A program made the translations under genes and the position numbers. Under the pieces are notes generated by a model. It was not told the origin of the DNA, ran no database searches, and saw nothing but the letters and a program-made list of their open reading frames with translations. Positions 2,509 through 57,872 of a stretch of DNA of 64,000 nucleotides are shown piece by piece (within the stretch, counting starts at the first letter, position 1; every line of letters begins with the position of its first letter). The stretch comes from a virus (lineage: Duplodnaviria > Heunggongvirae > Uroviricota > Caudoviricetes): the IMG/VR virus record IMGVR_UViG_3300033153_011579; one strand, written 5' to 3'.

Positions 2509-2712
2509 ATGGAGTATTTCTCGACACTGTTTAACATCATGCTCGGCGCGCTCGGTATCTTGGGACTCCTTGTTGGAGGGGGGATCTTTATTGTGGGCAT
2601 CGCGGCGACTATAGTGGAGGAAAAGGCTAGATTCTTGTTGCTGTGCCCGATTGGATTTTTGGCCGGGTGCAGCGGATTAGCCTGGTTCGTCACGGTGGTG
2701 AAGTATCTGTAA
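2509..2712 (+). CDS. small membrane protein (67 aa, two hydrophobic helices)
   Basis: Element 2472-2505; hydrophobic sequence LGALGILGLLVGGGIFIVGIAATIV. Confidence 0.5.
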   Translation: MEYFSTLFNIMLGALGILGLLVGGGIFIVGIAATIVEEKARFLLLCPIGFLAGCSGLAWFVTVVKYL

Positions 2713-2745
2713 GAGAATGTAGAGTTCTCTGACGAGGAGCGGATT

Positions 2746-3075
2746 ATGACTGTCGAAGAAACAAGCGAAGAGCTGGCGCTGGAGGGACGATCGGTGGTCA
2801 TCGAGGTGACCCGCTTTCCCAAGGGCACATCCCGCGGCCGGGTGACATCGCTCGCCGTCGGCATCGACCCCGAGGTGAAGGAGGGGGACGAGGCCGTCGA
2901 TGTGTCTCCCGCCCTCGTGGTCGACGCGCTGATCTACGCCCTGAAGCTGAACTACGACGCTGAGAGCCAGCACGGATCGGACGAGACCGCCGAGGAGTAC
3001 GTCGAGGACGTGGCGCGGATCCTGCTGTCGCAGATCGAGAACGATGAGCCGAGCTCGCTCAGGAGGGTCCACTGA
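2746..3075 (+). CDS. hypothetical protein, duplicated-gene copy A (109 aa)
   Basis: Element 2709-2739; ~90% identical to the ORF at 5952-6282. Confidence 0.6.
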   Translation: MTVEETSEELALEGRSVVIEVTRFPKGTSRGRVTSLAVGIDPEVKEGDEAVDVSPALVVDALIYALKLNYDAESQHGSDETAEEYVEDVARILLSQIENDEPSSLRRVH

Positions 3076-3085
3076 CACGGAGAAG
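2752..3085 (+). repeat. ~335-bp direct repeat, copy A (pairs with 5958-6292, >90% nt identity by eye)
   Basis: Near-identical nucleotide strings that include the trailing CACTGACACGGAG partial element. Confidence 0.8.
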
Positions 3086-3088
3086 AAA

Positions 3089-3280
3089 ATGACTATGCTG
3101 ACCGCCTATATCGTTCTGGGGGTGCTCGTGCTGGGAGCTATCGGTACCGGTATCTGGGCCAAGCTCACTGGTGATCCGGTCCCTGTGATTCTTTGCGCCC
3201 TACTGATCGCGGCGGCGGCGGCGCTGTTGAACATCCCGTCGAGCAGGTTCGCCAAGTCCAAGAAGGAGCTCGACCGATGA
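3089..3280 (+). CDS. small membrane protein (63 aa)
   Basis: Partial element, then ATG; two hydrophobic segments. Confidence 0.45.
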   Translation: MTMLTAYIVLGVLVLGAIGTGIWAKLTGDPVPVILCALLIAAAAALLNIPSSRFAKSKKELDR

Positions 3281-3519
3281 AAAGATTCAAACTTCACCAG
3301 CGAGTCCGCGTGACCGAGGGCGAGCTCGTCGGCCGATTCGGAGCCGTCTGGCGGTGTCGTCGAGCCGATGATGCGGCATGGATCGCGATGGACGAAGACA
3401 TCCCGGAGTCGCTGCGACAGTTTCCAGCAAACGACGCACACGGCCGCGGTAACCACGTGATCCTCTGGCCGGACCAATGCGAGAGGATCACCAAAGCGCC
3501 GAAGCTGAAGGCTGTGTGA
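3277..3519 (+). CDS. hypothetical protein (80 aa)
   Basis: ATGA overlap with the preceding stop. Confidence 0.45.
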   Translation: MKRFKLHQRVRVTEGELVGRFGAVWRCRRADDAAWIAMDEDIPESLRQFPANDAHGRGNHVILWPDQCERITKAPKLKAV

Positions 3520-3851
3520 TGATTCGAAACGGCGACAAACCAGGTGAGCGACGGTTAGCTCTTCCGATCCACTTCCGTGGGCCGACCAGGTGCCTCGGGG
3601 TGGAGGGGACCGTCGATGACGACTACAACGTGGTTCCAGTAGGTCGAGCTCGAGCTTGCGTGCTGAAGGACCTCTGCATCCGCTATCGGGACCGAGAAGA
3701 CTATGGACCGGCGACCCCCTGGTACTCCGAGTGTCCTTACGACTGGCAACGGATGATCTGTACGGAATATCAAACTTCGTGGAGAAATCGAGGGCCGGTG
3801 ATGGACCGTTTGGTAGACATCTACGCCGCGATGCCAGCGAGGGAGAAGTAG
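3519..3851 (+). CDS. hypothetical protein (110 aa, Cys-containing)
   Basis: TGATG overlap; GC3 bias. Confidence 0.45.
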   Translation: MIRNGDKPGERRLALPIHFRGPTRCLGVEGTVDDDYNVVPVGRARACVLKDLCIRYRDREDYGPATPWYSECPYDWQRMICTEYQTSWRNRGPVMDRLVDIYAAMPAREK

Positions 3852-3853
3852 TC

Positions 3854-4339
3854 TTGGTTGAAATCACACACGACCGCCTCGTGAAAGCTGCAGCTATCTG
3901 GCTCGGCCAGAAGCATCGAGTGGTCTCCACCGAGCTCGTCTGCAGTACCGTCTCAGAGAACGCCGATGCTATCGGATGGGACGGTTACGGCAGGTGCATG
4001 GTCATCGAGTGCAAGGTCAGCCGCTCAGATTTTCTCGCCAACAAGCACAAACCACACGAGATCGTCGGTGACTCCATGGGGAACGAGCGCTGGTTCATGA
4101 CACCACCTGGTCTTGTCGAGCCAAAGGAGTTGCCGCGCAGCCACGGGCTCCTCGAGTACACGCCCAGTGGCCACGGGTCCGGCTACTTCATCCGCAAGGT
4201 CAAGAAAGCTCGGCCGCGGAAGAGGACGGTCGACCGGCTTTGGAACGAGAACCGAACACTGGTCGCCATCGCAGGCCGTGCTCTCGAGGCCGCTTCGAGG
4301 CTCAAGCCGCTCTGGCTCGGTGACGGCGAGGACGAGTAA
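3854..4339 (+). CDS. PD-(D/E)XK nuclease-like protein (start uncertain; TTG at 3854 follows a GGGAGAAG RBS; the ORF frame is open from 3656)
   Basis: Motif GWDGYGRCMVIECKVSRSDF has D...(V/I)ExK spacing typical of the PD-(D/E)XK fold; it ends DE* directly into an element. Confidence 0.45.
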   Translation: MVEITHDRLVKAAAIWLGQKHRVVSTELVCSTVSENADAIGWDGYGRCMVIECKVSRSDFLANKHKPHEIVGDSMGNERWFMTPPGLVEPKELPRSHGLLEYTPSGHGSGYFIRKVKKARPRKRTVDRLWNENRTLVAIAGRALEAASRLKPLWLGDGEDE

Positions 4340-4369
4340 GAGAATGCCGGATTCTATGACACGGAGGAG
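4336..4369 (+). promoter_or_regulatory. junction element copy (variant with ATG inside the right arm: ATTCTATGACACGGAGGAG)
   Basis: Sequence at this position. Confidence 0.75.
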
Positions 4370-4374
4370 TGAAG

Positions 4375-4581
4375 ATGGGCGTGCGAACAAAAAAGTTGGC
4401 TGAATGGAAACACGCTGCCATCGAGGCGTTCTACCGACTAGATAGCCTCGTCAATGACAGCGAGTGTGACAACGCAGAGGAACCATACTCCGATTGGCAG
4501 CCGTGCGAGGATGGGTGCAACTACTGTGACGATCGCGAGGCGAGGGACAGGATCGCCCAGCTCATGGCCAAGGACCAATAG
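4375..4581 (+). CDS. hypothetical protein (68 aa, Cys-rich C-terminus)
   Basis: Element, then ATG 7 nt after GGAGGAG. Confidence 0.5.
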   Translation: MGVRTKKLAEWKHAAIEAFYRLDSLVNDSECDNAEEPYSDWQPCEDGCNYCDDREARDRIAQLMAKDQ

Positions 4582-4588
4582 GCTGTAA

Positions 4589-4744
4589 GAGAGTGATAGA
4601 TTCTCTGACACGGAGGATAAGTGGATCGACGGCAAGTACAAGGAATCCGGCATGGACATCGATGGCAACCTCGACCGCGAAGTTGCGATCTTCCACCTGA
4701 CCGGTAAGGGGCGGGAGGCCGCGAAAAGCGATGAGGAAAAATGA
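4589..4744 (+). CDS. small ORF with unresolved start (coding frame ...KWIDGKYKESGMDIDGNLDREVAIFHLTGKGREAAKSDEEK*)
   Basis: The GC3-rich frame after element 4585-4617 has no ATG/GTG/TTG before the ATG at 4649; the GTG at 4621 sits in an AT3-rich frame. Confidence 0.3.
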   Translation, partial: ESDRFSDTEDKWIDGKYKESGMDIDGNLDREVAIFHLTGKGREAAKSDEEK

Positions 4745-5951: not shown

Positions 5952-6282
5952 GATGGCTGTTGAGGAAACAACTGAAGAGCTGGCCCTGGAGGGACGCTCG
6001 GTGGTCATCGAGGTGACCCGCTTTCCCAAGGGCACATCCCGCGGCCGGGTGACATCGCTAGCCGTCGGCATCGAGCCCGACGTGAAGAATGGGGGCGACC
6101 CCGTCGATGTGTCTCCGGCCCTCGTGGTCGACGCGCTGATCTACGCCCTGAAGCTGAACTACGACGCCGAGAGCCAGCACGGGTCAAACGAGACGGCCGA
6201 GGACTACGTCGAGGACGTGGCGCGGATCCTGCTGTCGCAGATCGAGAACGACGAGCCGAGCTCGCTCATGCGGGTTCACTGA
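5952..6282 (+). CDS. hypothetical protein, duplicated-gene copy B (109 aa)
   Basis: ~90% aa identity to 2746-3075; own RBS GAGGACAAG; no full element upstream. Confidence 0.6.
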
Positions 6283-7674: not shown

Positions 7675-7712
7675 GCTTGTAAGAGAATTTTGCATTCTCT
7701 GACACGGAGAAG

Positions 7713-8054
7713 ATGATGAATCAGGATAGAGTAATCGAAATAGTGAGGGGCTGGCGGTGTCCTCACTGCTTCATGGAGTACGAGAACATTAAGGAAGCCC
7801 AGGAGTGCGATCAGCAGTGCTCCGCCTTCCTCGACGATGCTCCCCCAACTTGTGACTGGTGTGATCAGCCGGGAGAACACGAGAGTCCAGTCGAGGGGCT
7901 ACACTTTCTCATCAACTGTGGGCACTACATGTACGGTATGCATGAGGACGATAGTGGGGACGCTGAGAACGACCGCTACGAGACCGTCCAGCGGTTACGC
8001 GGTGTCGAGGCCCTTCCATGGGAGTACCCAGACGTCGGAGTGAAAGATGAATAA
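7713..8054 (+). CDS. Cys-rich zinc-finger-like protein (113 aa)
   Basis: Element 7679-7709; CPHC...CDQQC...CDWCD...CGH. Confidence 0.55.
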   Translation: MMNQDRVIEIVRGWRCPHCFMEYENIKEAQECDQQCSAFLDDAPPTCDWCDQPGEHESPVEGLHFLINCGHYMYGMHEDDSGDAENDRYETVQRLRGVEALPWEYPDVGVKDE

Positions 8055-13713: not shown

Positions 13714-13737
13714 CACGTTCCCTAGGAACTTGAGCTT

Positions 13738-13770
13738 GTAAGAGAATCTCGCATTCTCTGACACGGAGGA
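13738..13770 (+). promoter_or_regulatory. junction element copy immediately downstream of a family-2 hairpin
   Basis: GTAAGAGAATctcgcATTCTCTGACACGGAGGAA. Confidence 0.8.
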
Positions 13771-13774
13771 AAAA

Positions 13775-13954
13775 ATGGACGAACACATGAGATATTTAGG
13801 CTGCCTGAAACTACTTGAGGATTGCTCACCTTACGTACCGGAAGAGATTCGTGAGGGTATCGAGATGGCTCACGACGATGCTGTAGAGGCCAGCAACGGG
13901 ACCTTGCGGGCTCGCAGTGTGCTCGATCGACGAGAGATCGAGGTGGTGACGTAA
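13775..13954 (+). CDS. hypothetical protein (59 aa)
   Basis: Element, then ATG; the stop is the TAA of the next element. Confidence 0.4.
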   Translation: MDEHMRYLGCLKLLEDCSPYVPEEIREGIEMAHDDAVEASNGTLRARSVLDRREIEVVT

Positions 13955-13985: not shown

Positions 13986-14189
13986 ATGATGGGTAAAGAT
14001 GTGAGGACCAAGACATTCGCTATGATGTTTCGGGAGCGCTGCGTGATCATGCGGGATGCTTTCGACCGCCGTGACGTAGAGGGCTTTGCTACTGCTCTCA
14101 AGGACGTTGAGCGCCTGATGCGAGAGCACGCCGAGGGGTGCGGCTGCTCACAATGCCGAGAGACGCTGAAGATCATGAATGAGGTGTAA
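13986..14189 (+). CDS. hypothetical protein (67 aa; C-terminal CGCSQC)
   Basis: Element 13951-13983. Confidence 0.5.
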   Translation: MMGKDVRTKTFAMMFRERCVIMRDAFDRRDVEGFATALKDVERLMREHAEGCGCSQCRETLKIMNEV

Positions 14190-14223
14190 GAGAATACACA
14201 CGTCCTTTAACACGGAGGAAACG

Positions 14224-14460
14224 ATGAGTACTGTTCTGGATAATGACCAAAAATTGATGGTAATTCTGGCGGTTGTGGTGGCACTCTTCCTGTTAATTTT
14301 GGCTGGTGGGAAGCTTATTGGTGATGTTTTGTCACCCCCAACACCCCAAGAGGACTGTATGAACCAGGCCCAGCAGCTGGACAGCGAGGAGTCTGAGAAA
14401 GAAGCCTACTACAAGTGTCTTGAGTCTTTAGGGCTGGAAGATCCTAAAAAGGCTTTGTAA
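14224..14460 (+). CDS. small membrane protein (78 aa)
   Basis: Element 14186-14218; TM segment MVILAVVVALFLLILAGG. Confidence 0.5.
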   Translation: MSTVLDNDQKLMVILAVVVALFLLILAGGKLIGDVLSPPTPQEDCMNQAQQLDSEESEKEAYYKCLESLGLEDPKKAL

Positions 14461-14492
14461 GAGAATCTTCCGTTCTCTGACACGGAGAAGAA

Positions 14493-15164
14493 GTGAAGCT
14501 GAGAAAACCACCAATCCTCTGCTCGATCTGCGGAGACCCAATCGTCACGAAGTGGCGAGACAAGCGAAGGCAGACCTGCGGGTCTCCCGAGTGCCGGGTG
14601 GCGATCCTGCTCGAGCCGCACCTGGGCGACCGGACTCGACCGTACGCCGGCGGAGCTCGCGGGAAGTGGAAAAAAAGCACCAAGCGCGGGTCGGTGGTGC
14701 GCGACCTCGCGAAGTGGGGTATTGGGCTTTCCGAGGAGATCTCCACGAACCTCGCCGACGCGGCCGACCAGGTCTTTAAGAGAACCAAAACCGCGAAGGC
14801 GGTCGGGACGAAGAAGGACGAGCGCGGTGCGGACCACCCGGAGGCCCAGGCTCAGATCTGGGGCTTCCTCGCTCGTAGGAGCGCGCTCATAAAAGTCGTC
14901 AGCAAGGACGACGGCGAGCCCGGGTTGCTCATTCTCAAAACCAAAAGCGAGAGTGTCCCGCACGCCATCCGCCGTCTCCTGAGCATCACCCCGGTCTCCG
15001 AGAACCTGTGCGATGTCTTCATGGCGTGGAGCTGTCCTTGCCCTCAGGACTCTCGAGTGATTTACGAAACGATCGACGACCTGCCCAAGACGGTAGGCTA
15101 TCACGACCCGTGCCCGCGTTGCGGTGCGGCACCACTGGAGGTGAAAAATGTTCCTAAAAAATAG
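14493..15164 (+). CDS. hypothetical protein with N- and C-terminal Zn-ribbon-like Cys pairs (223 aa; GTG start)
   Basis: Last element copy 14457-14487; strong GC3 bias; CSICG...CGSPEC ... CPRCG. Confidence 0.55.
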   Translation: MKLRKPPILCSICGDPIVTKWRDKRRQTCGSPECRVAILLEPHLGDRTRPYAGGARGKWKKSTKRGSVVRDLAKWGIGLSEEISTNLADAADQVFKRTKTAKAVGTKKDERGADHPEAQAQIWGFLARRSALIKVVSKDDGEPGLLILKTKSESVPHAIRRLLSITPVSENLCDVFMAWSCPCPQDSRVIYETIDDLPKTVGYHDPCPRCGAAPLEVKNVPKK

Positions 15165-15528
15165 CGTGTTCCTTCCCGGGCGAGGCTGGCTACTCGTGAA
15201 GCCACCGGAGTCGGAAGCCGACACAGGAGAGGTCTACACTGTCGACGTGATCGAGCTCGCCGCCGAGGAGAAGTCCGCGTGCCCGCAGTTCCAGGAGGAG
15301 ACAGCGATACGCGGTGCTGGCGGCGCTCCGATGATGACCGTGGACATCGTGCTCCCGAAGCGCTGCTACGTCGGTGACCGGTGGAGCGTACTAAAGGACA
15401 GAGACGCAGTGCGCGAGGTACCCGACCTGGACGGTGCCCTGCTCAAGACCGAGGAGGTGATCGGCTGGGAGTGGGAGGACGACCGTCTCAAGCCGCCTCC
15501 TGGCGTCGTAGAGGACCTGGACTCCTGA
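15148..15528 (+). CDS. hypothetical protein (126 aa); weak GroES/gp31-like pattern
   Basis: RBS GGAGGTGA then ATG; GRGWLLVKP...GEVYTV...VGDRWSV loosely recalls the Cpn10 fold. Confidence 0.4.
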   Translation: MFLKNSVFLPGRGWLLVKPPESEADTGEVYTVDVIELAAEEKSACPQFQEETAIRGAGGAPMMTVDIVLPKRCYVGDRWSVLKDRDAVREVPDLDGALLKTEEVIGWEWEDDRLKPPPGVVEDLDS

Positions 15529-16487
15529 TGCCGACCAGAGCACACATCCAGGCGTTGGCCAACGCGAGAGAGGCTCTCGAGCCGTTCAGCCGGTGGCTCG
15601 TCCGCGGGTGCGGGAAGACCGATGGAGAGGCCGACTTCATCATCAGCTTCGTGTGTCGCGCGCTGTGGACTTCCACCGCCGACGACGACGAGGATCCCGA
15701 CCCGCTCGATTGCCTCTCCGAGCCGATGATCACCCGGCCGACATTCAACAAGCTGAAATCGGCCATCCGGCAGTATTACACCTGGCACCTCGTCCGGCAG
15801 TCGTCGCCACCGAGTGAGAAAGAGCGGGCGAGGCGGCAGCTCAGGCGGCTCGAATCCATCTTGCCGTACGGCGGCGTCGGGAGACGAGCCAAACGGGTCG
15901 CGATCGATGCGCTGTCGCAGGCGGATTTAAAAAAGCTCATGGACGGACTGAAAAAATGGCACGCGGAACAAGGACGGCGATGGCCCTGGAGCTACCCGGT
16001 GATCAGCATGTGCCTGAAGATCTCGCCGGCGATCAGAAACTGTCTGGTCTACCTCTCTCGTGAGGAGCTCGTCCTCGCTCTCGCCGACGGGGTGAACAGC
16101 GGGTCGTTCAACCTGTGGGTCCGCCAGAAGAACGTGCCGGTCATGAGGTCGATCCCCATCGGGCTCGTCTGGAAAGAGGCGGACATGCTCGTCGGCTGGC
16201 CCTGGCAATGGGAGACGCTCCAGGACATTATCTCGTCGTCCAACGCGAGCACCCAGAACTCGGTGAACAAGATCAAAGAGATCTCTTTCAAGTACTATCG
16301 CCACGTCCTGGGAGACATCGGCGACCCGAAGACGTTCTTAGCTCGACTTCGGTATGCCACCTGGGTCTGGCTCTTGAAAAAGACGAAAGGCGACTGGCTC
16401 TCCGTCGCGCAGATCGTCGGGAAGTCGGTAAAGATCCTCAGAAGACGGCCGGAGCTGCTCGAGGTCGTGTCGAGGAGGCTGAACTAG
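15526..16487 (+). CDS. hypothetical protein (320 aa)
   Basis: ATGA overlap; the long ORF table entry begins upstream at 15381, but the in-frame ATG at 15526 matches the preceding stop. Confidence 0.5.
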
Positions 16488-17191
16488 TCCGATACGCAGC
16501 GAGTGTACTGAGACTCGGTCTTGAGAGACCCCCACACATAGGCCTCGGAGAACAGGACGCCCCAGGCGTACGCCGGGTTGTTCCCGGGCGAGCTCGACCA
16601 GTGGTACGACCAGCACGGACCGACAAGGTCATCCCCCCAGTAGCACCCGTCCGACCCGGGGCCTTCCAATTCGGCGCACGGATCGCAGTCGGGACCCTCC
16701 GCGCACGGATTCGTCAGGCAGTCGGGGTCGGTCACCCCGCAGTCTACCGACGCGCAGCCGACGATGATTCCCGACAGCTCCTGGATCAGCGGGAGTCGCC
16801 AGTCGTCGCCGAGGGCCTCGCAGTAGTCGACCGCGTCGACCCAGAGCATGAGCTCGGTGCTCGGCGGGTTCTCCCAGCAGAGGTCGCCGTCTAGCCAGCA
16901 GGTGGCCGTGTCGGTATCGGTGTCGGTATCGGTGTCGGTGTCGGTATCGATCACTGTTTCCGTATTGGTTTCGGTATCTTGCGTGTCTGTGTCGATCACG
17001 GTGTCCGTGTCGGTGTCCGTATCGGTCTCGGTGTCGGTGTCACCGTCGGTGTCCGTGTCCGTGTCGGTGTCCGAATCGACGTCCGTGTCGGTGTCGCCGG
17101 CGTCCGGCTCCATGAACGGAGCCTCGGTATCGCCGCAGGCCATCACAATTGCGAATATCCAAATATATCTCATCCTACATCTCCTCCCCAT
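16484..17191 (-). CDS. lipoprotein with a long Thr-Asp (TD) dipeptide repeat and a C-terminal DUF1566-like domain
   Basis: Signal peptide + lipobox (AIVMAC); (TD)n; C-terminal WRLPLIQEL...YWSSS...AWGVLFSEAYVWG...TRCV resembles the DUF1566 signature. Confidence 0.5.
   Translation of the reverse strand: MGRRCRMRYIWIFAIVMACGDTEAPFMEPDAGDTDTDVDSDTDTDTDTDGDTDTETDTDTDTDTVIDTDTQDTETNTETVIDTDTDTDTDTDTDTATCWLDGDLCWENPPSTELMLWVDAVDYCEALGDDWRLPLIQELSGIIVGCASVDCGVTDPDCLTNPCAEGPDCDPCAELEGPGSDGCYWGDDLVGPCWSYHWSSSPGNNPAYAWGVLFSEAYVWGSLKTESQYTRCVSD
16905..17100 (-). repeat. tandem 6/12-bp nucleotide repeat (GTGTCGGTATCG-like) encoding the TD repeat
   Basis: Visible periodicity. Confidence 0.8.
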
Positions 17192-17420
17192 GCTGCAGAG
17201 CTCTCAGGGCCTCCCCGAGGTCCATGAACTCCTCGACCAGGCTGACGTCACCGTCCTCGCCGCCGGGTGCCCAAAGGTCGTACGTCCGGCTCGTCTTGTC
17301 GAATATCACGAAGTCGTCCGGCTCGACCGCCTCGAACACGCCGTCCTTGACGACCCCGGTCACCCGGTACTTCCGGCCTCTCTCGTGAGGATCGCTACTG
17401 AACCAAAATCCAATTTTCAT
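17175..17420 (-). CDS. hypothetical protein (81 aa)
   Basis: ORF with GC3 bias, overlapping the lipoprotein start. Confidence 0.4.
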   Translation of the reverse strand: MKIGFWFSSDPHERGRKYRVTGVVKDGVFEAVEPDDFVIFDKTSRTYDLWAPGGEDGDVSLVEEFMDLGEALRALQHGEEM

Positions 17421-17596
17421 CTCAAACTCCTATGCTCACGGGCTCGAGGGAGAGACAGGCCCCCCGGAGAACGACGACCGAGGCGAAGGCAGAAAGCCGC
17501 TGGTCAGACGGCAACCCCGACCGCTTTACAGGCGACCCGTCACTCCATCCAACCCGTGAGGTACTTCGTACATGTGTGATTTTGCGCTTCGGCATC

Positions 17597-18598
17597 CTAA
17601 AAAGGCGTCTTCCGCTCTGCTGCAGCCCTGATCATACCGTCTATCTCGCTCTTCAGCCACTCTCGCTCTCGCTCGGTCGGCTCCCGCCCCTTCACGCGGC
17701 CCGTGAACCACCCCAAATCGGCCTCCCAGTCGTACTCGTCGGCGAACACCCGGACCACCTGCAGCATCCGGTCTTTTACGTGCGCTCGAGTCAACCTCCC
17801 GCGGGAGATCGGCGCAGGCTTCTCCAGCGTCGCCATCAGCCCGCTAGCGGGTATGTATTCCTCGGACTCGTCCGGCTCGTCCTCTGAGGCCTCGTCGGGC
17901 TCGAGAGGCTCAGAATCGCCCTGAGGGGCGCTAGCGCCCTCTTTACATTGTTCACTAACACTGGAATCGGCGTTGACCGCGTTGATCAGGACAACGTGAT
18001 CGTCCAGCTTGTGCCAGAACGCTTGGACGAGTCCAGAGCACATCGCCTCGTCGAGCTTCTCGTCGTCCTCTTGCAGGCCGGACATCATGACCCGCCGAGT
18101 GTCAGGGTAGGTCGCCTCGATCTCACTCAGCAGACCGAGACCAGACATCCCAGGCATCTCGAAGTCGGTGATGACCACGTCGAACGTCCCGAGCTTGTTG
18201 ATGAGCATGATCGCCTGACTCGCCGAGCTCGCCTGGGTCGTCTCCCAGTCTTTGGGGAGAAGCCGGCAGACCGTCCGCCGCATGATGTCCTCGTCGTCGA
18301 CCACGAGGATGCGCAGGCGTCTCTTCGACGTCCTGGCTTCCGGAGGGTTGGTCCAGGCCCGGCACTCGCGAGCGAGGTTGACGTTCCCAACGCGCTCGGA
18401 GGTCGCGTAGACCGTCTCGATCACGGACTGCCAGAGGCCGCTGCAGGACTCGGGAGGTCCCCAGATCTCCTTCGGCCCAGCTCCCTCGATGGAGCTCAGC
18501 AGCCGGCCCTTGATCGTCGGGTCGAACAGCCCCTCTTTGAGAAACTGCATCGCGACCTCGCGAAGCTCGGGGTCCAGTGGTCGTCTAGATTTTGTCAT
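17597..18598 (-). CDS. CheY-like receiver (REC) domain protein (333 aa; REC in the middle, unknown N- and C-terminal domains, acidic linker)
   Basis: RILVVDDEDIMRR...FDVVITDFEMPGMSGLGLL...RRVMMSG shows acidic pocket + phosphoacceptor Asp + conserved Lys-region pattern. Confidence 0.6.
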   Translation of the reverse strand: MTKSRRPLDPELREVAMQFLKEGLFDPTIKGRLLSSIEGAGPKEIWGPPESCSGLWQSVIETVYATSERVGNVNLARECRAWTNPPEARTSKRRLRILVVDDEDIMRRTVCRLLPKDWETTQASSASQAIMLINKLGTFDVVITDFEMPGMSGLGLLSEIEATYPDTRRVMMSGLQEDDEKLDEAMCSGLVQAFWHKLDDHVVLINAVNADSSVSEQCKEGASAPQGDSEPLEPDEASEDEPDESEEYIPASGLMATLEKPAPISRGRLTRAHVKDRMLQVVRVFADEYDWEADLGWFTGRVKGREPTEREREWLKSEIDGMIRAAAERKTPF

Positions 18599-18631
18599 TT
18601 CCGCTCTCTTTCTGCCGGAACCACCCGGCTG
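18597..18631 (-). promoter_or_regulatory. leftward hairpin-SD element copy 1 (mRNA sense AGCCGGGTGGTTCCGGCAGAAAGAGAGCGGAAATG)
   Basis: One of four near-identical copies, each ending at a start codon. Confidence 0.75.
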
Positions 18632-18633
18632 AT

Positions 18634-18861
18634 TTAGTCGCGCTCGACCGTGACGTCTTCCGCGTCGTAGGTGTGACCGAGGTCTTCCATCTCCATCCCG
18701 ACCTGCTTCTTGAGCTCCTCGTCGCTATCGCTTTGGGTCTGCGACAGGTTCTCGAACGACTCGAGGGCGAGCTGGCCGTCGTCGAGATCGTAACGGACTA
18801 CCCAGCCGCTGTAGTCGTCGGCTTCACCGTCCCAAAGTACTCTGATGTTGCTTGCGATCAT
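18634..18861 (-). CDS. hypothetical acidic protein (75 aa)
   Basis: Preceded by element copy 2. Confidence 0.45.
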   Translation of the reverse strand: MIASNIRVLWDGEADDYSGWVVRYDLDDGQLALESFENLSQTQSDSDEELKKQVGMEMEDLGHTYDAEDVTVERD

Positions 18862-18896
18862 CTTCCGCTCTCTCTCTGCCGGCGACCAGCCGGCGG
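18859..18896 (-). promoter_or_regulatory. leftward hairpin-SD element copy 2 (stem GCCGGC/GCCGGC)
   Basis: Sequence at this position. Confidence 0.7.
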
Positions 18897-18903
18897 TTAT
18901 TCG

Positions 18904-19215
18904 TCAGCTTAAAACCGGCCAGAGCTGGACGTCGAAGATCTCCTCTTGCGTCCTCTGGATGTCTGTGAGGATCTGGTCCTGCTTCGCGAGCGCGGCGTAT
19001 GACTCCTCGTCGCCCTCGGCCTTGTCGGCATCTTCGAACCACGCGCGCCAGTTCTGGTTCGGGGCATCGCCCCACTCGCAGTCGATCGTGATGTCAGGAT
19101 ACAGTCGCGCGATCTCTTCGCCGACTGCCTTGCAGAACCTGTGCATCGACTTCTGGACGTCCATCCCGTCCATGTCGCCCATCGCGTGCTCGTCGATTCT
19201 GATGTGTGCGATCAT
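18904..19215 (-). CDS. hypothetical acidic protein (103 aa)
   Basis: Preceded by element copy 3. Confidence 0.45.
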   Translation of the reverse strand: MIAHIRIDEHAMGDMDGMDVQKSMHRFCKAVGEEIARLYPDITIDCEWGDAPNQNWRAWFEDADKAEGDEESYAALAKQDQILTDIQRTQEEIFDVQLWPVLS

Positions 19216-19248
19216 TTTCCGCTCTCTTTCTGCCGGAACCACCCGGCT
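19213..19248 (-). promoter_or_regulatory. leftward hairpin-SD element copy 3
   Basis: Sequence at this position. Confidence 0.75.
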
Positions 19249-19418
19249 AGTTGTCTTTAGATGCCTTGTTTATATGCGGGTACCACTTCTGCTGCCGAGT
19301 CCACATCTCTAAAACCTCGTCGGATGGTTCCCCGTATATGTCCAAGGAACAATCATTGCACTCGCCTTGCGGACCATATGGCTCTGTCAAACACCCACAC
19401 TCTGGACAACAGTTTTTC
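19248..19418 (-). CDS. small Cys-rich protein (~56 aa; MKNCCPECGCLTEPYGPQGECNDCS...)
   Basis: Preceded by element copy 4; below the 60-aa ORF-track cutoff. Confidence 0.35.
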
Positions 19419-19455
19419 ATTTTTCCGCTCTCTTTCTGGCCGGAACCACCCGGCT
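19418..19455 (-). promoter_or_regulatory. leftward hairpin-SD element copy 4
   Basis: Sequence at this position. Confidence 0.75.
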
Positions 19456-19524
19456 CACCAATTTAGACCCTGCACCCTGCTACATATTCACCACATTCGT
19501 AAGTGGTTGATTTTTCTCACCTTA

Positions 19525-19854
19525 TTAGCTCTTGGCCCGAGGATTCCGGACCTTGGGTTTCCGACCCTGCCGGACGGCTGTCATCCAGGCCTCGAGCTCG
19601 GCGACGAGGGCCTTGCTCTCGCGCAAGGTGTCTCGCTTCATCGGGTTCCCGCGGCTATCCTCTTCCGGGATCCACCGGCCGTACTTGTCCCTGCTGAACA
19701 CGAACCAGAGAGGCCCCCAGTTGAGCGACCTGGACTTCTTCTCGTCGGTCGCCGGCACGTACCCCGATTTTTCGATCTTCCAGTCTGCCGACGGGCAGCC
19801 GATGGACGTGTACTGACCGGCCGCCTTCCTCTTCCATTTGCATGAGTTTTCCAT
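19525..19854 (-). CDS. hypothetical basic protein (109 aa)
   Basis: ORF with GC3 bias. Confidence 0.45.
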   Translation of the reverse strand: MENSCKWKRKAAGQYTSIGCPSADWKIEKSGYVPATDEKKSRSLNWGPLWFVFSRDKYGRWIPEEDSRGNPMKRDTLRESKALVAELEAWMTAVRQGRKPKVRNPRAKS

Positions 19855-19860
19855 GTCTCT

Positions 19861-20076
19861 TTATACCCTCACTGTGGGGTTGGGTTCCAGTCCAATCATC
19901 GACCGGACGTTCGCCGAAGACCCGAGACGGTCGGCCCAGATCTCCGCAGCGTGGTAGTCGCCGCTCGCGTAGGCAATCTGAAACTGTTTGACCGCTTCCT
20001 CGACCAGGGTGTTGGCCAGCTCGACCGCTTCCTCGTCGTTCTTGGGCTCTATCATCATCGCTTCTTCAAAGGTCAT
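19861..20076 (-). CDS. hypothetical protein (71 aa)
   Basis: ORF. Confidence 0.4.
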   Translation of the reverse strand: MTFEEAMMIEPKNDEEAVELANTLVEEAVKQFQIAYASGDYHAAEIWADRLGSSANVRSMIGLEPNPTVRV

Positions 20077-20124
20077 CGTTTTCTCCTGGTTGCCGTGCCT
20101 ACCCTGCTGATGCTCTCGACCGCC

Positions 20125-20526
20125 CTAATGTGACAGCCACTCCAACATTTCATCGAATTTTTTTGCCTCGCCGACCCTTGCGACGCCGTCCATATCGTCG
20201 GTGAACAGCCCGTATTTTCCGGTCTTCGGCGACCACATCGCATACCTGTATCCCCCACCGCGGCTGTCGTAGGTCTCGGTCACCACGGACCAGTGGAACC
20301 GTCGGATGCTGTACTCGATCCGACCGTCATCGAAGTGCTTGGCCAAGATGGCTCTGCCGTGCGGGAGATCGACATCTGGTTTCGACTCTCGAGCCTGAAG
20401 GCGGGTCCTGGACGACCCGTCCTTCTTCTTCTTCCACGAGCTGATGCATCCGGCCATCCTCTCTCTATGGGTCTTTCTGGTCTTCCTGCGCTTCATGCCC
20501 CAGAGGCAATGCAAGCCCGGTGCCAA
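20125..20526 (-). CDS. hypothetical basic protein (133 aa)
   Basis: ORF. Confidence 0.4.
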   Translation of the reverse strand: MAPGLHCLWGMKRRKTRKTHRERMAGCISSWKKKKDGSSRTRLQARESKPDVDLPHGRAILAKHFDDGRIEYSIRRFHWSVVTETYDSRGGGYRYAMWSPKTGKYGLFTDDMDGVARVGEAKKFDEMLEWLSH

Positions 20527-20608
20527 CCAGAAAACTCAATGAAATTACGGGGCGGTCGGCCGGAGAGAGGGGCTGAGGTAAGATCTGTTACCGGGGAGGT
20601 GCGATCGG

Positions 20609-21295
20609 TTACATTCCGGCGATAAAAGCTGGCGGGCCAGCCCGCGCCACCAGGATCGGGCCGATCTTCGATCTCTCCCGCTTCACCTTCCGGGTCCTGA
20701 CCTTGGGGCCGAAGGCCGACGTCTTGCAATTCCCGGCCTGGTAGCAGGAGAGGGTCCCGACCAGGCTCCCGTCGCACTCTTCCTCCTGGCACCTCTTGAG
20801 CTCGTCGGTACCGGCCGAGAGCTGGCCCTCGGACGTCTTCATGTCGTAGCCCTTGGACAGAGCCTTTTTCAGAACCTGCCCGTGGACTTGCATCAGGCCT
20901 TGCTCTCCGTCTTTCCCATCTCGGATCTTTTCGTAAAAGCTCGATTCGTGGTCGACGACGACGGCCACCACGAGCGGGTCGACCCCGCGCTCGTCGGCAA
21001 TCCTGTCGATCATCGCCGCGAGCTTCGGAGCTCGCCGAGCTCTCTTCTGGTTGAGGGTGACCTCGATGCAGGCGTCTCGCCCTGGGCCTTCCTTCCGCTT
21101 CTTGCACGACGCGCTCAGAAAGCGCTTGATATAGTCCTCGACGTGGTCGGCTGTGACGAGTTTTTGGCCTCCCCAGACCGACGGCTCGTCACCAAGACCC
21201 TTCGACTCGGTCGGCCACGGGATCATCCAGATGACGATCACCACGAGGATGGCGATCAGTAAAAATAAAAAGAATCTGCCTCGCTTGTTCAGCAT
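20609..21295 (-). CDS. lytic transglycosylase (SLT domain) with N-terminal membrane anchor
   Basis: VVDHESSFYEK...GEQGLMQV (catalytic Glu-Ser ... GLMQ signature); TM helix FFLFLLIAILVVIVIW. Confidence 0.6.
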   Translation of the reverse strand: MLNKRGRFFLFLLIAILVVIVIWMIPWPTESKGLGDEPSVWGGQKLVTADHVEDYIKRFLSASCKKRKEGPGRDACIEVTLNQKRARRAPKLAAMIDRIADERGVDPLVVAVVVDHESSFYEKIRDGKDGEQGLMQVHGQVLKKALSKGYDMKTSEGQLSAGTDELKRCQEEECDGSLVGTLSCYQAGNCKTSAFGPKVRTRKVKRERSKIGPILVARAGPPAFIAGM

Positions 21296-21319
21296 CCGGT
21301 CCTCCTGGGTTTGGGTTTA

Positions 21320-21333
21320 GGCCCCGCGGGGCC
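21320..21333 (-). promoter_or_regulatory. GC palindrome GGCCCCGCGGGGCC between the stop of 21367-22041 and the SD of the transglycosylase gene
   Basis: Perfect 14-bp palindrome; no U-tract, so not a canonical terminator. Confidence 0.4.
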
Positions 21334-21366
21334 CCGCTACAGATTGGATATTGGTAAGCTCGAGCA

Positions 21367-22041
21367 TCACTTTTTCTTCGGCTTGATCATGTTGGAATAA
21401 ACCCACTCGCCGACCTTGTATAGCACGTAGCCGAGGCTCAGGCCGAGAAGCAGATCGACCGGAGTGAGATCTCCGTCGAGGTCGACGTCCTTCAGACTCG
21501 GGTCGATGTCGACGACCACCTTCTTGTTAGTCCACCTGATCCCAGAATCCTGTTTGTCGGTCAGGAAGTAGTGCGTCTTGAAAAAATAGCCGGACTCCCT
21601 CGCGGTCTTGTTGGTGGCGAAGTTGACAAACTGCTGGCCGAGCTCCTGCTTGAGGCCGCCCTCGGCGAACATCGTCGCGTACATCCTCGCCGACATCGGT
21701 ATCTGGTCCCAGGTCCAGCCCTGGATCTCCTTGCGTCTCGCGATCCGGGCGGGGGTGCAGTGGTCCGGGTTGGCCTTGCACTTCGCTCCGTTCGGATTGA
21801 GCCAGGCCGGGTTCGTCGGCTGTGAGAATTTCCTGATCAGGCTCTTGAACGACCGCCACTTGTTGCCCCACCGGAAGAACCGCAGGAACATCGTCCACGC
21901 GAGCGCAGAGGCCTCAGCACGACCGAGGTGCTTGCCGTACCCGCCCTCGCCGGCCAGCGCCTTCGCAAGCCACAGGACGTCGTCGTCGGTCAGCGTGTAC
22001 GACTTCGAATTATCCTCGTACCGGTAGACTGCTCGAGCCAT
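21367..22041 (-). CDS. hypothetical protein (224 aa)
   Basis: ORF with GC3 bias. Confidence 0.5.
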   Translation of the reverse strand: MARAVYRYEDNSKSYTLTDDDVLWLAKALAGEGGYGKHLGRAEASALAWTMFLRFFRWGNKWRSFKSLIRKFSQPTNPAWLNPNGAKCKANPDHCTPARIARRKEIQGWTWDQIPMSARMYATMFAEGGLKQELGQQFVNFATNKTARESGYFFKTHYFLTDKQDSGIRWTNKKVVVDIDPSLKDVDLDGDLTPVDLLLGLSLGYVLYKVGEWVYSNMIKPKKK

Positions 22042-22192
22042 TTGCTACCTCAAATAGCGGACTGGTCCGCCCACCATGGTCTGAACCCTGGACATTCCAG
22101 GGACGGGTGCTCGTCTCGATGGAGCGCGCAGTTGCCACAAAGGTCTTTCACGATGAAGCTGAGGATCCGCGTGAGGTGGTGGTCGTCCACGA

Positions 22193-22555
22193 CTACTTCC
22201 CCCCGAGGATCCGCTCGATGAACTTCGAGTACGTGGCGGTCTCCTCGCCACCGACCTTCTTGCCGACCATCTTGCCGCCTTTGAAGGCCGCGACGAACGG
22301 AATCGACGTGACCTTGAGCTCGTCCGCCAGGGCGGAGTCCTGCTCGACGTCGACCTCGAGGAACTCCGCGTCATCACGATGCGGACACGCCGCCTTCTGC
22401 AGCTTCGGCCCGGCCTCGATGCAGCTCCCGCAGTTCGGACTGTGGAACTTCACGACCACGGGCTTCTTCGAAGATCGGATCTGCTCCCTTGCCGAGGCCG
22501 AGTTCGACCTCTTCAGAGGCATACAAAATCCCTGGAACTCTTGGTTTAGAGCCAT
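22193..22555 (-). CDS. thioredoxin-fold protein (120 aa)
   Basis: VVVKFHSPNCGSC (CxxC active-site variant) ... SIPFVAAFKGGKMVGKKVG matches thioredoxin topology. Confidence 0.55.
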   Translation of the reverse strand: MALNQEFQGFCMPLKRSNSASAREQIRSSKKPVVVKFHSPNCGSCIEAGPKLQKAACPHRDDAEFLEVDVEQDSALADELKVTSIPFVAAFKGGKMVGKKVGGEETATYSKFIERILGGK

Positions 22556-26062: not shown

Positions 26063-26266
26063 TCAATCCTCCCTCGTATATTTGTCTAAGAGCGCCTGCT
26101 GCTCCTTGGTGAGTTCTTCTCCGATCTGGGTCAGCATGACGACGTGCCAGAACTCGCACATCTCCCGCTGGGCGTCGTCGCACATTATTTGGAACTCGTC
26201 GGTGATCGTCTCGCCTTCTTCGAGCGGCGGCGCTTTGATCTCGACGGTCCAGGTGATCTCAGTCAC
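26063..26266 (-). CDS. hypothetical acidic protein (67 aa)
   Basis: ORF. Confidence 0.4.
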   Translation of the reverse strand: MTEITWTVEIKAPPLEEGETITDEFQIMCDDAQREMCEFWHVVMLTQIGEELTKEQQALLDKYTRED

Positions 26267-27368
26267 GGATCACCTCGACGATCCCTTTGGCAGTTGGTGA
26301 CAAGCTCGCGAGGACCGCATCGGCTCCGGTGACCTCCCTGATGTGCGCCAGGAACTTTGCGTCGTCGTCCATCTTCAAGATCTCGCCGCCGTCGAAGAAC
26401 CGAAAGTCGTCGTTGATGAGGTCGAGGCACGTGACGGCCAGCTCCGGGGTTTTCGTCATGATGTAGTCGTCTTTGTAGATGGCGTAGCTGAGCAGGTCGA
26501 GATCCAGGAGGGTCTTCCTAAATGTTCCCTGGGGGCCGTCGTCCGGGTTCTGCTCGTGTGGATTGTCCTTGATGTTGCAGGGGACGATGTCGCTCATCGG
26601 ACCTTTCCCATGCCGCGTCTGGTAAGCGCGGGTGACGAGCACGATCTCCGGCTCGTATCCCATCTCGCAAATATTTTTCGACCCGGTGTTCGTCGGAGTG
26701 ACGTATGGAAAAAAACCAAAATTCTGGTCGAGCAGCAGGCCTTGCGACCCTTCCCAGATAACCGTTTCGAACGAATCGATGACCTGCTCGTTCGACATCC
26801 CGATGGCCGCGTTGTGTGTCACCTCGTCGCACGCGACGAAGAAATTTTGGATGATGTAGTCGTCCGGTCTGAAGCCGTAGTATTGATAAAACTGCTCCAT
26901 CTTCATCCGCATTATTCTCGGGTGGAACAGGTCTTCGAACAGCAGGTGATGACCCTCCCGCTCTCTTTTGACGGTCGCGAAGATTCCGACCTCACAGCTG
27001 CCGCCGAAATCGGAATTCCGCTTATTCCACTCGATTTCAAACGGCGTGGTGACCGGGCACCTGTGGTCGACGAGGAGTCGTGGGAAGACTTTTTTCACCA
27101 GCAAGACGTCGAGCTCGTTCATGAGGGCGACGGGGTTGACCGAGCAGTATTTCGACCAGAAGGTCGGGACGCCTCGGAACGACCCGCTACCGAAATGAGA
27201 AAATACGTGAGACCTACCGTCCTCGAGCACCACCTGATGCGCGGCCTGGTGGCCGCCCGAGAACCGCACCACGAGCTCGGCCTTGTTGACGTCACAGAGG
27301 TAGTCGACCAGATGTCCTTTCCCCTCGTCCCCAAAGCCGAGCCCGATGACAGCGATGTGCTTGGTCAC
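26259..27368 (-). CDS. purZ?: adenylosuccinate synthetase homolog, PurA/PurZ family (369 aa; GTG start)
   Basis: The motifs [14 protein letters not shown] and [11 protein letters not shown] correspond to the PurA P-loop (GDEGKGK) and GGHNAGH motifs. [24 protein letters not shown] corresponds to PurA [34 protein letters not shown] corresponds to AYSTRVGAGP, and [14 protein letters not shown] to GATTGRRRRTGWLD. Confidence 0.65.
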   Translation of the reverse strand: [369 protein letters not shown]

Positions 27369-55875: not shown

Positions 55876-56532
55876 ATGAGCTTCCTCCAGCAGTCGATCC
55901 GGGACCAGTCACTCGTCGAGTGGGTCGACCTGCGTCGTTGGAACGCCAACTTCAACGACCTCTCCGGTCAAGGGGCCGTCGGGACGCCCTCCGACGTCTG
56001 GTACGGTGGTGGTGGAGTGCAGTTCGCCAACGACGACGGCTACATCAGCGTGCCTGACGTCGCCGCACACCGAAACGACGCCCTGTCGATCGTAGTCGTC
56101 GGTGAGTTCGACAGGCTCGAGCGTCCCGCCGCCAACCCAGGATTCCTGCTCACCAGGATGGACGGCGGTGGAAACATCGAGTGGCAGTTCGGGATCGACG
56201 ACACTCCGCAACTGTTCTTCGTCGATACCAACGCGTCGGCGACAGTCACAAGAGCAGTCGACTACCGCGGCATGCGCTCGCTTGGGCTGACCACCACGAA
56301 TGGCGGTACGCCGATTGGTTACGGTCAAGGGCTCTCGCTCGGTAATTTCTCCGGTGCGGCAGACGTCGATGCAAACGTCGATATGCTGCTGTACCTCGGG
56401 AACAACGACGACTTCGACCGGTCGATGCTCAACCCCATGCACGCCGCCCTGCTCTTCAATCGACCTCTCGACGAAGAAGAGATGGCCGTCCTCCACGGCG
56501 AGCTCATGGCGCTCCCCGGAGGTGAGCACTGA
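55876..56532 (+). CDS. LamG-like domain protein 3 (218 aa)
   Basis: DDGYISVPDVAAHRNDALSIVVVGEF...LYLGNND...NRPLDEEEMAVL. Confidence 0.55.
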   Translation: MSFLQQSIRDQSLVEWVDLRRWNANFNDLSGQGAVGTPSDVWYGGGGVQFANDDGYISVPDVAAHRNDALSIVVVGEFDRLERPAANPGFLLTRMDGGGNIEWQFGIDDTPQLFFVDTNASATVTRAVDYRGMRSLGLTTTNGGTPIGYGQGLSLGNFSGAADVDANVDMLLYLGNNDDFDRSMLNPMHAALLFNRPLDEEEMAVLHGELMALPGGEH

Positions 56533-57872
56533 TGCCGCGTGCATACGCCACACGACGAGTTCTCCTCGTGCCCGACCTCGCCGACCCCGCCCTCTACGGA
56601 GCGTGGACCATGGTGCCACGAGGTGGCCTCCTTGTTGACCACACTCCCCAAGGGAACGACGGCGTCCCAGGCGCGTCTTCCGGAGTCGAGCACACAATCC
56701 TCGGCCCGATGCGGAGGTATTGGCCGAATAGCGGAGCTGGCGGGTCCGTGATCGGTGCTCCTGGAGACTTCGCTCTGGGCGATCTGACATGCTGCTTTTG
56801 GACGCGGATGGATATTGGAGCTGCGCCTGATGCCTATGGGTTTGGCTACCGATTGAACAACAACGATCAGTGGTGGCTTCGCGTTCGTGCTGGGTTGGTC
56901 TCTATTTTCGACGACATCGATAATGCTGGAGCAAATCTGTACCAGACACTGGTTCAGGCGGGCAGGCTGGTTCACGTTGTTGGTGTGATGGATAATCTTG
57001 AAAATCTTCTGTACCTTGACAACGTCTTGGTGGGCTCGGGCACCTTTGCCTCTGACAACTGGGCGAGTTTTGCTGGGCAGTTGTATCACGGTGCGAGGAC
57101 CACTGGCGCTGATCCAGTTCAAGGCATCGTCTCACCCGCTCTCGTCCACAACGCAGCCAAGGACCAGGCCTGGGTCACCAAGGACTACATGAAGGGCGCT
57201 TCGGCCGTCCAGTTCAAAACCGACTGGGGCGTCAAACAGAGCGTCGGGAACGAAGTCGCCAACGCTCGCGTCGGCCACAATAGCTCGCCCTTCGAGATCG
57301 TCAGCGGTACCTGGCAGATGACCATGGACACCATCGACGGTGTCGACGTCAAGGTGATGGAGTGTATCGCTGCTGGAGTGGTCGGGATGCCGACCTCGCT
57401 GTTCGAGGCGACCCCAACCGAGGCGGCATTTGGGACGTGGGAGTGGTGGTTGACCAAGGTCGACGGCAGTTCACCTTATGTGATGTTCGCTGGATCTGAC
57501 CTTGCTGCTATAGCCGGTGGGACACAGAGCGGATACGACATTATTATCAACTCTGCCGAGCGTGTCTTTTTTCAAGAGTGTGCTGCTGGTGCTCCGGTAA
57601 GCTCTTGGTGGACTGACATCGATTATGTGACACCCGGATCATGGAACAAGTTCAGAGTCACTAGGAGATATGACGGCCAGTTCACCGTATACATGGATGA
57701 CGTTTTAATCAACGCGACTGGCGGTGTGGAGTCTAACCCCTTCACCGATCTGACCACCACGACAGCCAACTACGTCGTGCTCGAATTCGACGCCGGAGAT
57801 AAATTTGGGTATGCCGACCGTCGCGGCTCACACAGTTTCGTAAAATACCTCGGGGTCATCCCCCCAGGGTAG
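56532..57872 (+). CDS. LamG-like domain protein 4 with C-terminal extension (446 aa)
   Basis: DLTCCFWTRMD...NLLYLDNVLVGSG N-terminal domain; ATGA overlap. Confidence 0.5.
   Translation: MPRAYATRRVLLVPDLADPALYGAWTMVPRGGLLVDHTPQGNDGVPGASSGVEHTILGPMRRYWPNSGAGGSVIGAPGDFALGDLTCCFWTRMDIGAAPDAYGFGYRLNNNDQWWLRVRAGLVSIFDDIDNAGANLYQTLVQAGRLVHVVGVMDNLENLLYLDNVLVGSGTFASDNWASFAGQLYHGARTTGADPVQGIVSPALVHNAAKDQAWVTKDYMKGASAVQFKTDWGVKQSVGNEVANARVGHNSSPFEIVSGTWQMTMDTIDGVDVKVMECIAAGVVGMPTSLFEATPTEAAFGTWEWWLTKVDGSSPYVMFAGSDLAAIAGGTQSGYDIIINSAERVFFQECAAGAPVSSWWTDIDYVTPGSWNKFRVTRRYDGQFTVYMDDVLINATGGVESNPFTDLTTTTANYVVLEFDAGDKFGYADRRGSHSFVKYLGVIPPG

Follow-up and report, generated by a model that had tools for sequence, protein, structure and literature searches.

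How does a virus come to encode a response-regulator-type protein of its own, and why are its gene and the three small open reading frames (ORFs) upstream of it each preceded by nearly the same short hairpin element? These questions are raised by a minus-strand locus at positions 17,597 to 19,455 of the Caudoviricetes record IMGVR_UViG_3300033153_011579, of which a stretch of 64,000 nucleotides (the window) was analyzed here. We show that the locus encodes an orphan response-regulator-type protein with a CheY-like receiver (REC) domain, which belongs to a small phage-restricted family and carries a lineage-unique N-terminal domain of 95 amino acids (aa) in front. We further propose, at what we judge to be an even chance, that this protein is an orphan phage response regulator switched via host phosphorylation and that the repeated element is a duplicated hairpin-leader cassette providing an open start context.

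A receiver-domain protein of a small phage family

A preliminary description of this DNA, made from the letters alone, had recognized a REC domain in the ORF at 17597-18598, with unknown domains on either side and an acidic linker, and our searches bear this out. Pfam Response_reg (PF00072), which has a gathering score of 30.2, matched aa 97-191 at 56.6 bits, and the best matches in a PDB sequence search were CheY-type receivers, with E-values down to 8e-10. All five phospho-site residues are present: D101/D102, D145, S173, and K197 align with CheY D12/D13/D57/T87/K109, at a spacing of 43/28/24 residues compared with 44/30/22 in CheY. The JGI annotation starts the protein at Met17 (317 aa, P0001); the ATG at 18598, which is anchored by the repeated element, is preferred here (Table 1).

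Outside of the REC domain, the protein could not be assigned to any known type. Neither aa 1-95 nor aa 256-333 matched a family in Pfam or NCBIfam, and neither the N-terminal part nor the C-terminal flank matched a sequence in the PDB. A DNA-binding or AAA+ output domain of the OmpR, NarL, NtrC, or LytTR types was not found in Pfam, NCBIfam, or the PDB, and no kinase was detected in the 64-kb window, where tblastn with seven REC-domain proteins, five of them histidine kinases, matched the REC gene alone. Long BLAST and NCBIfam alignments reaching into the N-terminal part had raised the idea that aa 1-95 are the decayed HATPase_c domain of a hybrid kinase. This idea was rejected: the hhalign probability was 0.7%, the real sequence did not beat shuffled ones, and the tblastn kinase alignment runs beyond the start codon of the REC gene into the element, which counts against homology of this part. 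The genes upstream of REC in related contigs (see below) were also rejected as a source of the N-terminal extension, to which they show no similarity.

Relatives of the protein were obtained with an exhaustive phmmer (HMMER) search of the C-terminal 84 aa against 1.84 billion cluster representatives. Four homologs were found (P0050-P0053, 216-250 aa, E-values 2.8e-9 to 8e-5), and two further matches, both low-complexity repeat proteins, were dropped. In all four homologs, a Pro/Glu-rich acidic linker joins the REC domain to the same C-terminal domain, recognizable by its three motifs (Table 1), and aa 96-333 of the window protein align with them end to end at 28-39% identity. The phospho-site is present in all five members of the family, with the D-D pair, the D, and the K invariant and the S/T position kept. 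The 95-aa N-terminal extension, in turn, is absent from each of the four homologs.

Conservation within the family is strongest in the motifs of the C-terminal domain, where 13 of 72 alignment columns are invariant. The domain was modeled as a three-helix bundle with a pLDDT of 87.5; comparison of this model with known structures returned generic helical-bundle matches and no informative fold, and a search of the C-terminal profile against the PDB produced noise alone. From the model, the C-terminal domain appears to be a novel basic three-helix domain; it defines the family, in which it follows the REC domain and the acidic, disordered linker.

The contigs encoding the homologs are phage-like in all four cases; among them, L020 carries a tape-measure homolog, L021 a phage sliding clamp, and L022 a denV-like gene. 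In L022, a homolog of the 224-aa gene of the window (30% identity) is followed by an SLT transglycosylase gene (51% identity), six small unrelated genes, and the REC gene, and L021 encodes, downstream of REC, a homolog (44% identity) of an 81-aa gene of the window. The shared gene order and the phage-like nature of the contigs indicate that the receiver gene has been conserved within a phage lineage. Downstream of the SLT transglycosylase gene, which is conserved as well, lies a hypervariable array of small ORFans, and the receiver gene is the conserved anchor at its end.

The family looks rare, given that nothing was found in IMG/VR, in species-representative genomes, or among cultured phages. 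A DNA pattern back-translated from the C-terminal motif, in its corrected form, matched the window and L020-L022 and had no match in IMG/VR; protein patterns of the family recovered no relative when one genome per species was searched; and the cultured-phage collection contained nothing resembling the C-terminal domain and just three REC-level matches at the protein level. A word-indexed search with the full protein returned the protein itself and REC-level matches (35-43% identity) to cellular hybrid kinases and NtrC-type regulators, and the same type of search with the C-terminal profile returned nothing. The earlier statement that REC proteins are rare in phages can be kept insofar as they are uncommon; they are known, nevertheless, as six PHROG families match the REC domain, 13 IMG/VR contigs encode REC relatives, and such genes have been described in Alteromonas phages V22 and A5 (PMC10579305). 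Thus, phage REC proteins as such are not new, and it is the combination of REC, linker, and C-terminal domain, together with the private leader cassette described below, that is previously undescribed. One of the viral contigs, otherwise unrelated, encodes two adjacent stand-alone receiver ORFs of 149 and 133 aa (IMG/VR contig 3300048897_000057, L007, 9911-10728).

A repeated hairpin-leader element in front of four genes

The REC gene and the three co-directional ORFs upstream of it are each preceded by an element of ~33 nucleotides (nt), AGCCGGGTGGTTCCGGCAGAAAGAGAGCGGAA(A), which ends 0-2 nt before the ATG. Four minus-strand copies are present against zero expected by chance, and the scan for extra copies that had been suggested found none beyond these four in the 64-kb window; the element pattern had no match in IMG/VR either. 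The copies had been described as near-identical, which is accurate for copies 2 and 4 (100% identity over 32 nt, with zero matches among shuffled sequences) and less so for the others, since copy 1 has an extra C and copy 3, with 67% ungapped identity, has a different stem. The loop sequence UGGU is retained in all four copies. In copy 3, the closing pair of the stem is altered on both sides, from G.U to C-G, so that pairing is kept; this is the sole structural clue for selection on the element. Copy 4 begins 3 nt past the stop codon of the 75-aa ORF.

In copies 2 and 3, the similarity extends ~20 nt into the otherwise unrelated ORFs, which fits recombination junctions. The 103-aa and 75-aa ORFs share their first ~7 codons (ATGATCGCA...ATCAGA), with unrelated remainders; they were considered as paralogs, and this was rejected because the common part is limited to the first few codons. 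The 75-aa and 103-aa ORFs have no similarity to anything in cultured phages, and neither the three small ORFs nor the N-terminal extension has a counterpart in the contigs of the relatives, where all four REC genes have ordinary GGAGG-type sites, often overlapping stop and start codons, with no hairpin and no element. As judged from these sequences, the element, the three small ORFs, and the 95-aa N-terminal extension are peculiar to this phage. The coding status of the 57-aa ORF is less certain, because its GC content is low (Table 1) and the JGI pipeline made no call of it on an identical contig.

Table 1. Coordinates and properties of the features of the REC locus (positions in the window; GC3, GC content at third codon positions).
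Feature	Position	Strand	Properties
Spacer	17421-17596	-	176 nt, apparently non-coding; closes the module 3' of the REC gene
REC-protein gene	17597-18598	-	333 aa; stop codon included
C-terminal domain, aa 256-333	17600-17833	-	pI 9.3; GRLTRAHV, DW, K.R.PT[DE]RER.W
Acidic Pro/Glu-rich linker, aa 213-255	17834-17962	-	pI 4.05; composition kept in homologs
REC domain, aa 96-212	17963-18313	-	carries D101, D102, D145, S173, K197
N-terminal extension, aa 1-95	18314-18598	-	basic, pI 9.2; GC3 0.81 (coding-type)
Element copy 4	18599-18630	-	GCCGGG/UCCGGC, loop UGGU, then AGAAAGAGAGCGGAA, directly before the REC ATG
75-aa acidic ORFan	18634-18861	-	pI 4.05; GC3 0.80
Element copy 3	18862-18895	-	diverged; 6-bp stem GCCGGC/GCCGGC, loop UGGUC, leader AGAGAGAGAGCGGAAG
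103-aa acidic ORFan	18904-19215	-	pI 4.27; GC3 0.81
Element copy 2	19216-19248	-	identical to copy 4; first bases overlap the TAG stop of the 57-aa ORF
57-aa Cys-rich ORF (CxxC...CxxC)	19247-19420	-	GC 47.7% vs ~60% for the genome
Element copy 1	19421-19455	-	an additional C follows the stem; an intergenic stretch of 69 nt, richer in AT, precedes this copy

The element had been interpreted as a hairpin that locks translation initiation and as the carrier of a purine-rich Shine-Dalgarno (SD) sequence, and neither interpretation survived. The 6-bp GC hairpins have folding energies of -10.5 to -13.0 kcal/mol in isolation and are present in all minimum-energy folds, in which the purine-only leader of 15-17 nt between stem and start codon and the ATG itself are unpaired; the probability of being unpaired is 0.53-0.63 for the leader, compared with 0.45 for 19 other genes of the block. 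The hairpin thus lies upstream of the initiation region and leaves SD and AUG unpaired, so that the start site is not locked. Pairing of the purine tract with a generic anti-SD, which may not be that of the host, yields -4.5 to -5.3 kcal/mol, short of a canonical SD, compared with -8.6 +/- 2.5 kcal/mol for 22 other minus-strand genes, -8.1 for the early genes, and -3.0 +/- 2.7 for random 20-mers. Elsewhere in the block, genes start behind ordinary GGAGG or GAGG sites that lack a hairpin.

Conventional readings of the element also failed. The element was rejected as a terminator; no U-tract follows the stem on the minus strand, and a scan of 14000-22500 detected no sigma-70-like promoter. Rfam 15 gave no gathering-score match in the window and, with E-values up to 5 in the region 17350-19600, a single chance-level snoRNA on the other strand. 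Both the sigma-70 promoter and the Rfam reading were therefore discarded.

A second, unrelated element is found in front of the early genes. This early element, GTAAGAGAAT-loop-ATTCTCTGACACGGAGGAG..ATG, is present in at least 24 copies, all on the plus strand between 1152 and 14487, before nearly every small early gene (for example, at 1730-1782, 7676-7728, and 13735-13787). It is an extended imperfect palindrome, TGTAAGAGAA/TTCTCTGACA, with variable loops of 5-6 nt and a strong SD (GGAGG, -8.1 kcal/mol). The early-element pattern had no match in IMG/VR, and a metagenome scan recovered two contigs only, one probably by chance (L006) and one from a true relative (L005, 5.1 kb, first gene 58% identical), which contains several copies at 2709-4620; the source contig of the window is itself absent from that metagenome collection. 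Conservation of the early element in this relative indicates that a layout of hairpin, leader, and ATG is apparently used by the lineage. Hence, the earlier proposal of two hairpin families at initiation regions on opposite strands stands in that the early element is real, unrelated in sequence, and similarly laid out, and falls in that the hairpin of the REC module does not lock the start.

Proposed function and alternatives

Given that no phage kinase is detectable and that the phospho-site is kept among proteins with 28-39% identity, the REC domain is most likely phosphorylated from the host side. The phosphoryl group on D145 would come from a histidine kinase or phosphorelay of the host or from acetyl phosphate, and phosphorylation would switch binding by the C-terminal helical domain, so that a phage or host process may be tied to the signaling state of the host. 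The identical copies of the element, the spill of similarity into ORFs, the GC content of the 57-aa ORF, and the absence of all this in relatives point to a young, locally amplified start-region cassette tied to gene insertion. Most likely, the copies spread by local duplication or recombination as the ORFans were inserted, and the hairpin acts as an intercistronic clamp that would keep the purine leader and the AUG single-stranded; the cassette would let all four cistrons initiate in the same SD-poor context. A more far-reaching version seems to us doubtful: the proteins of this family would form a previously undescribed class of response regulators, confined to phages and equipped with a new output domain, through which the activity of a host kinase is read and phage development or host physiology is adjusted, and in this phage the extra N-terminal domain and the private cassette would bring the regulator and its three ORFan partners under an SD-independent translational regime of their own. 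Phages are known to eavesdrop on host quorum-sensing signals, and we know of hardly any documented case of a phage protein entering host two-component phosphotransfer directly.

Several points weigh against this proposal. The phosphorylation, the partner kinase, and the target of the REC protein are putative, and a kinase might lie outside of the range of the searches, which covered 64 kb of an 82-kb genome. The family comprises five members, which makes its conservation statistics thin, and modeling of the full-length protein with AlphaFold from its sequence alone gave no usable structure (pLDDT 37). As to the element, fold z-scores for the 60-nt contexts range from -0.4 to -1.7 and are not significant, the four young copies show essentially no covariation beyond the one G.U to C-G change, and the near-identity of the copies could reflect recent duplication without function.

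Instead of regulating, the receiver could act as a phosphate sink or decoy that drains a host kinase or phosphorelay, so that a host response in stress, motility, development, or defense is shut down, with the C-terminus serving stability or oligomerization. An intact acceptor site with neither a kinase nor a recognizable output domain found would fit this role, and EpsW of Myxococcus is reportedly an orphan receiver that acts in a host pathway. Moreover, other phages carry single-domain CheY-like genes (PMC10579305). We nevertheless consider a sink unlikely, because the strongest conservation in the family falls on the C-terminal motifs, which favors a specific interaction over a passive tail.

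For the element, the most direct challenge is that it is a functionless duplication scar, a start region carried along through repeated rounds of insertion or duplication, whose copies survive only because they are young. Two fully identical copies, similarity entering the coding sequence of two unrelated ORFs, absence from every related contig and from IMG/VR, and the deviant GC content of the 57-aa ORF, suggestive of recent acquisition, are all in line with a scar. Yet the diverged copy 3 keeps its stable stem through a two-sided change, along with leader and spacing, and the analogous layout, which occurs at least 24 times in this genome with variable loops and also in a relative, seems to have been selected in the lineage. 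The use of this layout in the lineage is the main reason why a functional reading of the four-copy element is preferred over a pure scar, which we regard as improbable. Alternatively, an RNA- or DNA-binding protein of phage or host could recognize GCCGG-N6-CCGGC as an operator, so that the four genes would be co-repressed or co-activated. Conservation of sequence beyond structure, including the UGGU loop, the fixed position relative to the ATG, palindromic half-sites suited to a dimer, and weak SDs that leave space for regulated initiation are compatible with an operator; against it, no candidate binding protein was identified, sequence conservation is uninformative because the four copies were recently duplicated, and the relatives of the same family lack the element, which is thus not a conserved target of the REC protein. 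We find an operator quite unlikely. Finally, a block of ~33 nt conserved before genes has the size of a phage-polymerase promoter, and with no sigma-70-like promoter between 14000 and 22500, the element could be a promoter for a phage-specific or hairpin-recognizing RNA polymerase that produces one short-leader transcript per gene. However, the longest ORF of the window encodes 722 aa (the longest judged to be coding, 681 aa), so that no single-subunit RNA polymerase gene was seen. The element also lies within a long block of co-directional genes, where it overlaps or directly adjoins the preceding stop codons, and it occurs in just four copies in 64 kb, which makes a promoter highly unlikely.

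Genomic context and host

The window consists of three gene blocks: small plus-strand genes from 1 to ~16.5 kb, a minus-strand block running from 36.2 to 16.5 kb, of which the REC module is the 3' end, and a plus-strand block from 36.4 kb onward. Phage origin of the window is supported by several lines that agree, indirect but consistent, including genes for a PurZ-type adenylosuccinate synthetase (see below), a DUF5131 protein, an SLT transglycosylase, and proteins that are GP88-family and replication-initiation-like, dense one-directional ORFan arrays, and a lack of tRNA and Rfam matches. In the plus-strand block at 36466-64000, only one of 20 scanned proteins of up to 681 aa matched a PHROG (phrog_1392, GP88-family, 59713-61014), which implies that the virion/structural module is extremely divergent; Pfam detected a Laminin_G_3 domain at 56532-57872 in this presumed virion block, and the 681-aa protein has no relative in IMG/VR. 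No tRNA or Rfam matches were found in the window, and defense-system profiles returned nothing relevant. The cultured-phage collection contains no relative of the window at the DNA level, and identical DNA is present in three other JGI samples (contigs L001-L003).

The gene at 26259-27368 (minus strand) encodes a PurZ-like adenylosuccinate synthetase (phrog_1211, 1.2e-51; Pfam Adenylsucc_synt, 1e-39), which suggests that the phage may replace adenine with 2-aminoadenine in its own DNA. The SLT transglycosylase product is 228 aa long in the window and 258 aa long in the L002 contig of another sample; the gene differs by an indel (37 nt at 20750-20788, minus strand, versus 11 nt at L002 2686-2698), and the rest is 100% identical over 4.5 kb. 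In the early region, a direct duplication of 300 nt (2746-3045 and 5953-6252, plus strand; 92% identity) presents one early gene twice over.

On either side of the REC module, a few features deserve mention. The region 19247-19524 (minus strand), made up of the Cys-rich 57-aa ORF and the 69-nt intergenic stretch before it, is markedly AT-richer than the genome with its ~60% GC, and the stretch contains a small hairpin, ACCAC-N8-GTGGT, that is terminator-like on the opposite strand only. At the other end, a terminator-like site was not found in the spacer at 17421-17596, which folds into one long imperfect hairpin (-72 kcal/mol, not significant against shuffled sequences, z -1.4) and includes a 57-aa ORF without coding-type GC3. 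Beyond the spacer, the minus-strand gene at 16484-17191 encodes a lipoprotein-like product whose sequence includes a lipobox-like VMAC, long (Thr-Asp)n repeats, and, at the C-terminus, an Lcl_C/DUF1566 domain (46 bits). The two gene blocks converge at this gene, the 3' end of which shares 4 nt with that of the last plus-strand ORF (15381-16487).

This lipoprotein had been taken, along with the receiver, to point toward a myxobacteria-like host. The inference is unsupported: Lcl_C/DUF1566 domains are widespread across phyla, and the similarity of the REC domain to the Myxococcus EspA and EspC profiles is generic, with 56 and 43 bits far under the cut-offs of 1400 and 1200. The strong GGAGG sites argue solely against hosts without SD usage.

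Implications and comparison with known systems

The phage-only receiver family, with an intact phospho-site and a new, well-modeled C-terminal domain, offers a concrete, testable handle on the protein. The two hairpin-leader elements suggest that the lineage assembles operons from standard initiation modules, which may double as recombination points for gene shuffling and, if functional, would be useful for gene calling and synthetic operon design.

Compared with CheY-like receivers (PF00072), the window protein scores well above threshold and retains the five active-site residues at CheY-like spacing. It differs in that REC is central rather than N-terminal, the protein is phage-encoded and lacks a known output domain and, in the window, a cognate kinase, and the Lys is followed by Leu instead of the common Pro. 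The closest phage counterparts are the CheY-like genes of Alteromonas phages V22 (gp30) and A5 (gp11), called class II auxiliary genes, which likewise encode receiver-domain proteins (PMC10579305). The likeness holds at the level of the REC domain; the V22 and A5 proteins are single-domain, ~147-149 aa long, and encoded in a host-recognition module (PMC10579305), whereas the window family adds an acidic linker and a conserved helical C-terminal domain, and its gene lies near SLT.

For the leader cassette, the nearest comparison within the genome is the early element, which has the same order of upstream stop codon, short hairpin, ~15-nt leader, and ATG. The two are unrelated in sequence and lie on opposite strand blocks: the early element has at least 24 copies, variable loops, strong GGAGG sites, and a relative in L005, whereas the element of the REC module, with its weak SD, is limited to four near-identical copies and has no known relatives. 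Among described systems, the latter resembles the PeSL (promoter-early stem-loop) cassettes of T4-type phages, short repeated regulatory stem-loop cassettes between small non-essential ORFans of a hypervariable region, through which recombination shuffles genes (PMC2839356). As with PeSLs, the four copies lie between ORFans that are absent from relatives, and the similarity runs on into unrelated ORFs at their 5' ends. In PeSLs, a strong sigma-70 promoter is coupled to a terminator stem-loop (Arbiol et al. 2010, PMC2839356), in contrast to the element described here, which has neither a promoter-like site nor a U-tract on the coding strand and forms a cassette that ends at the start codon.

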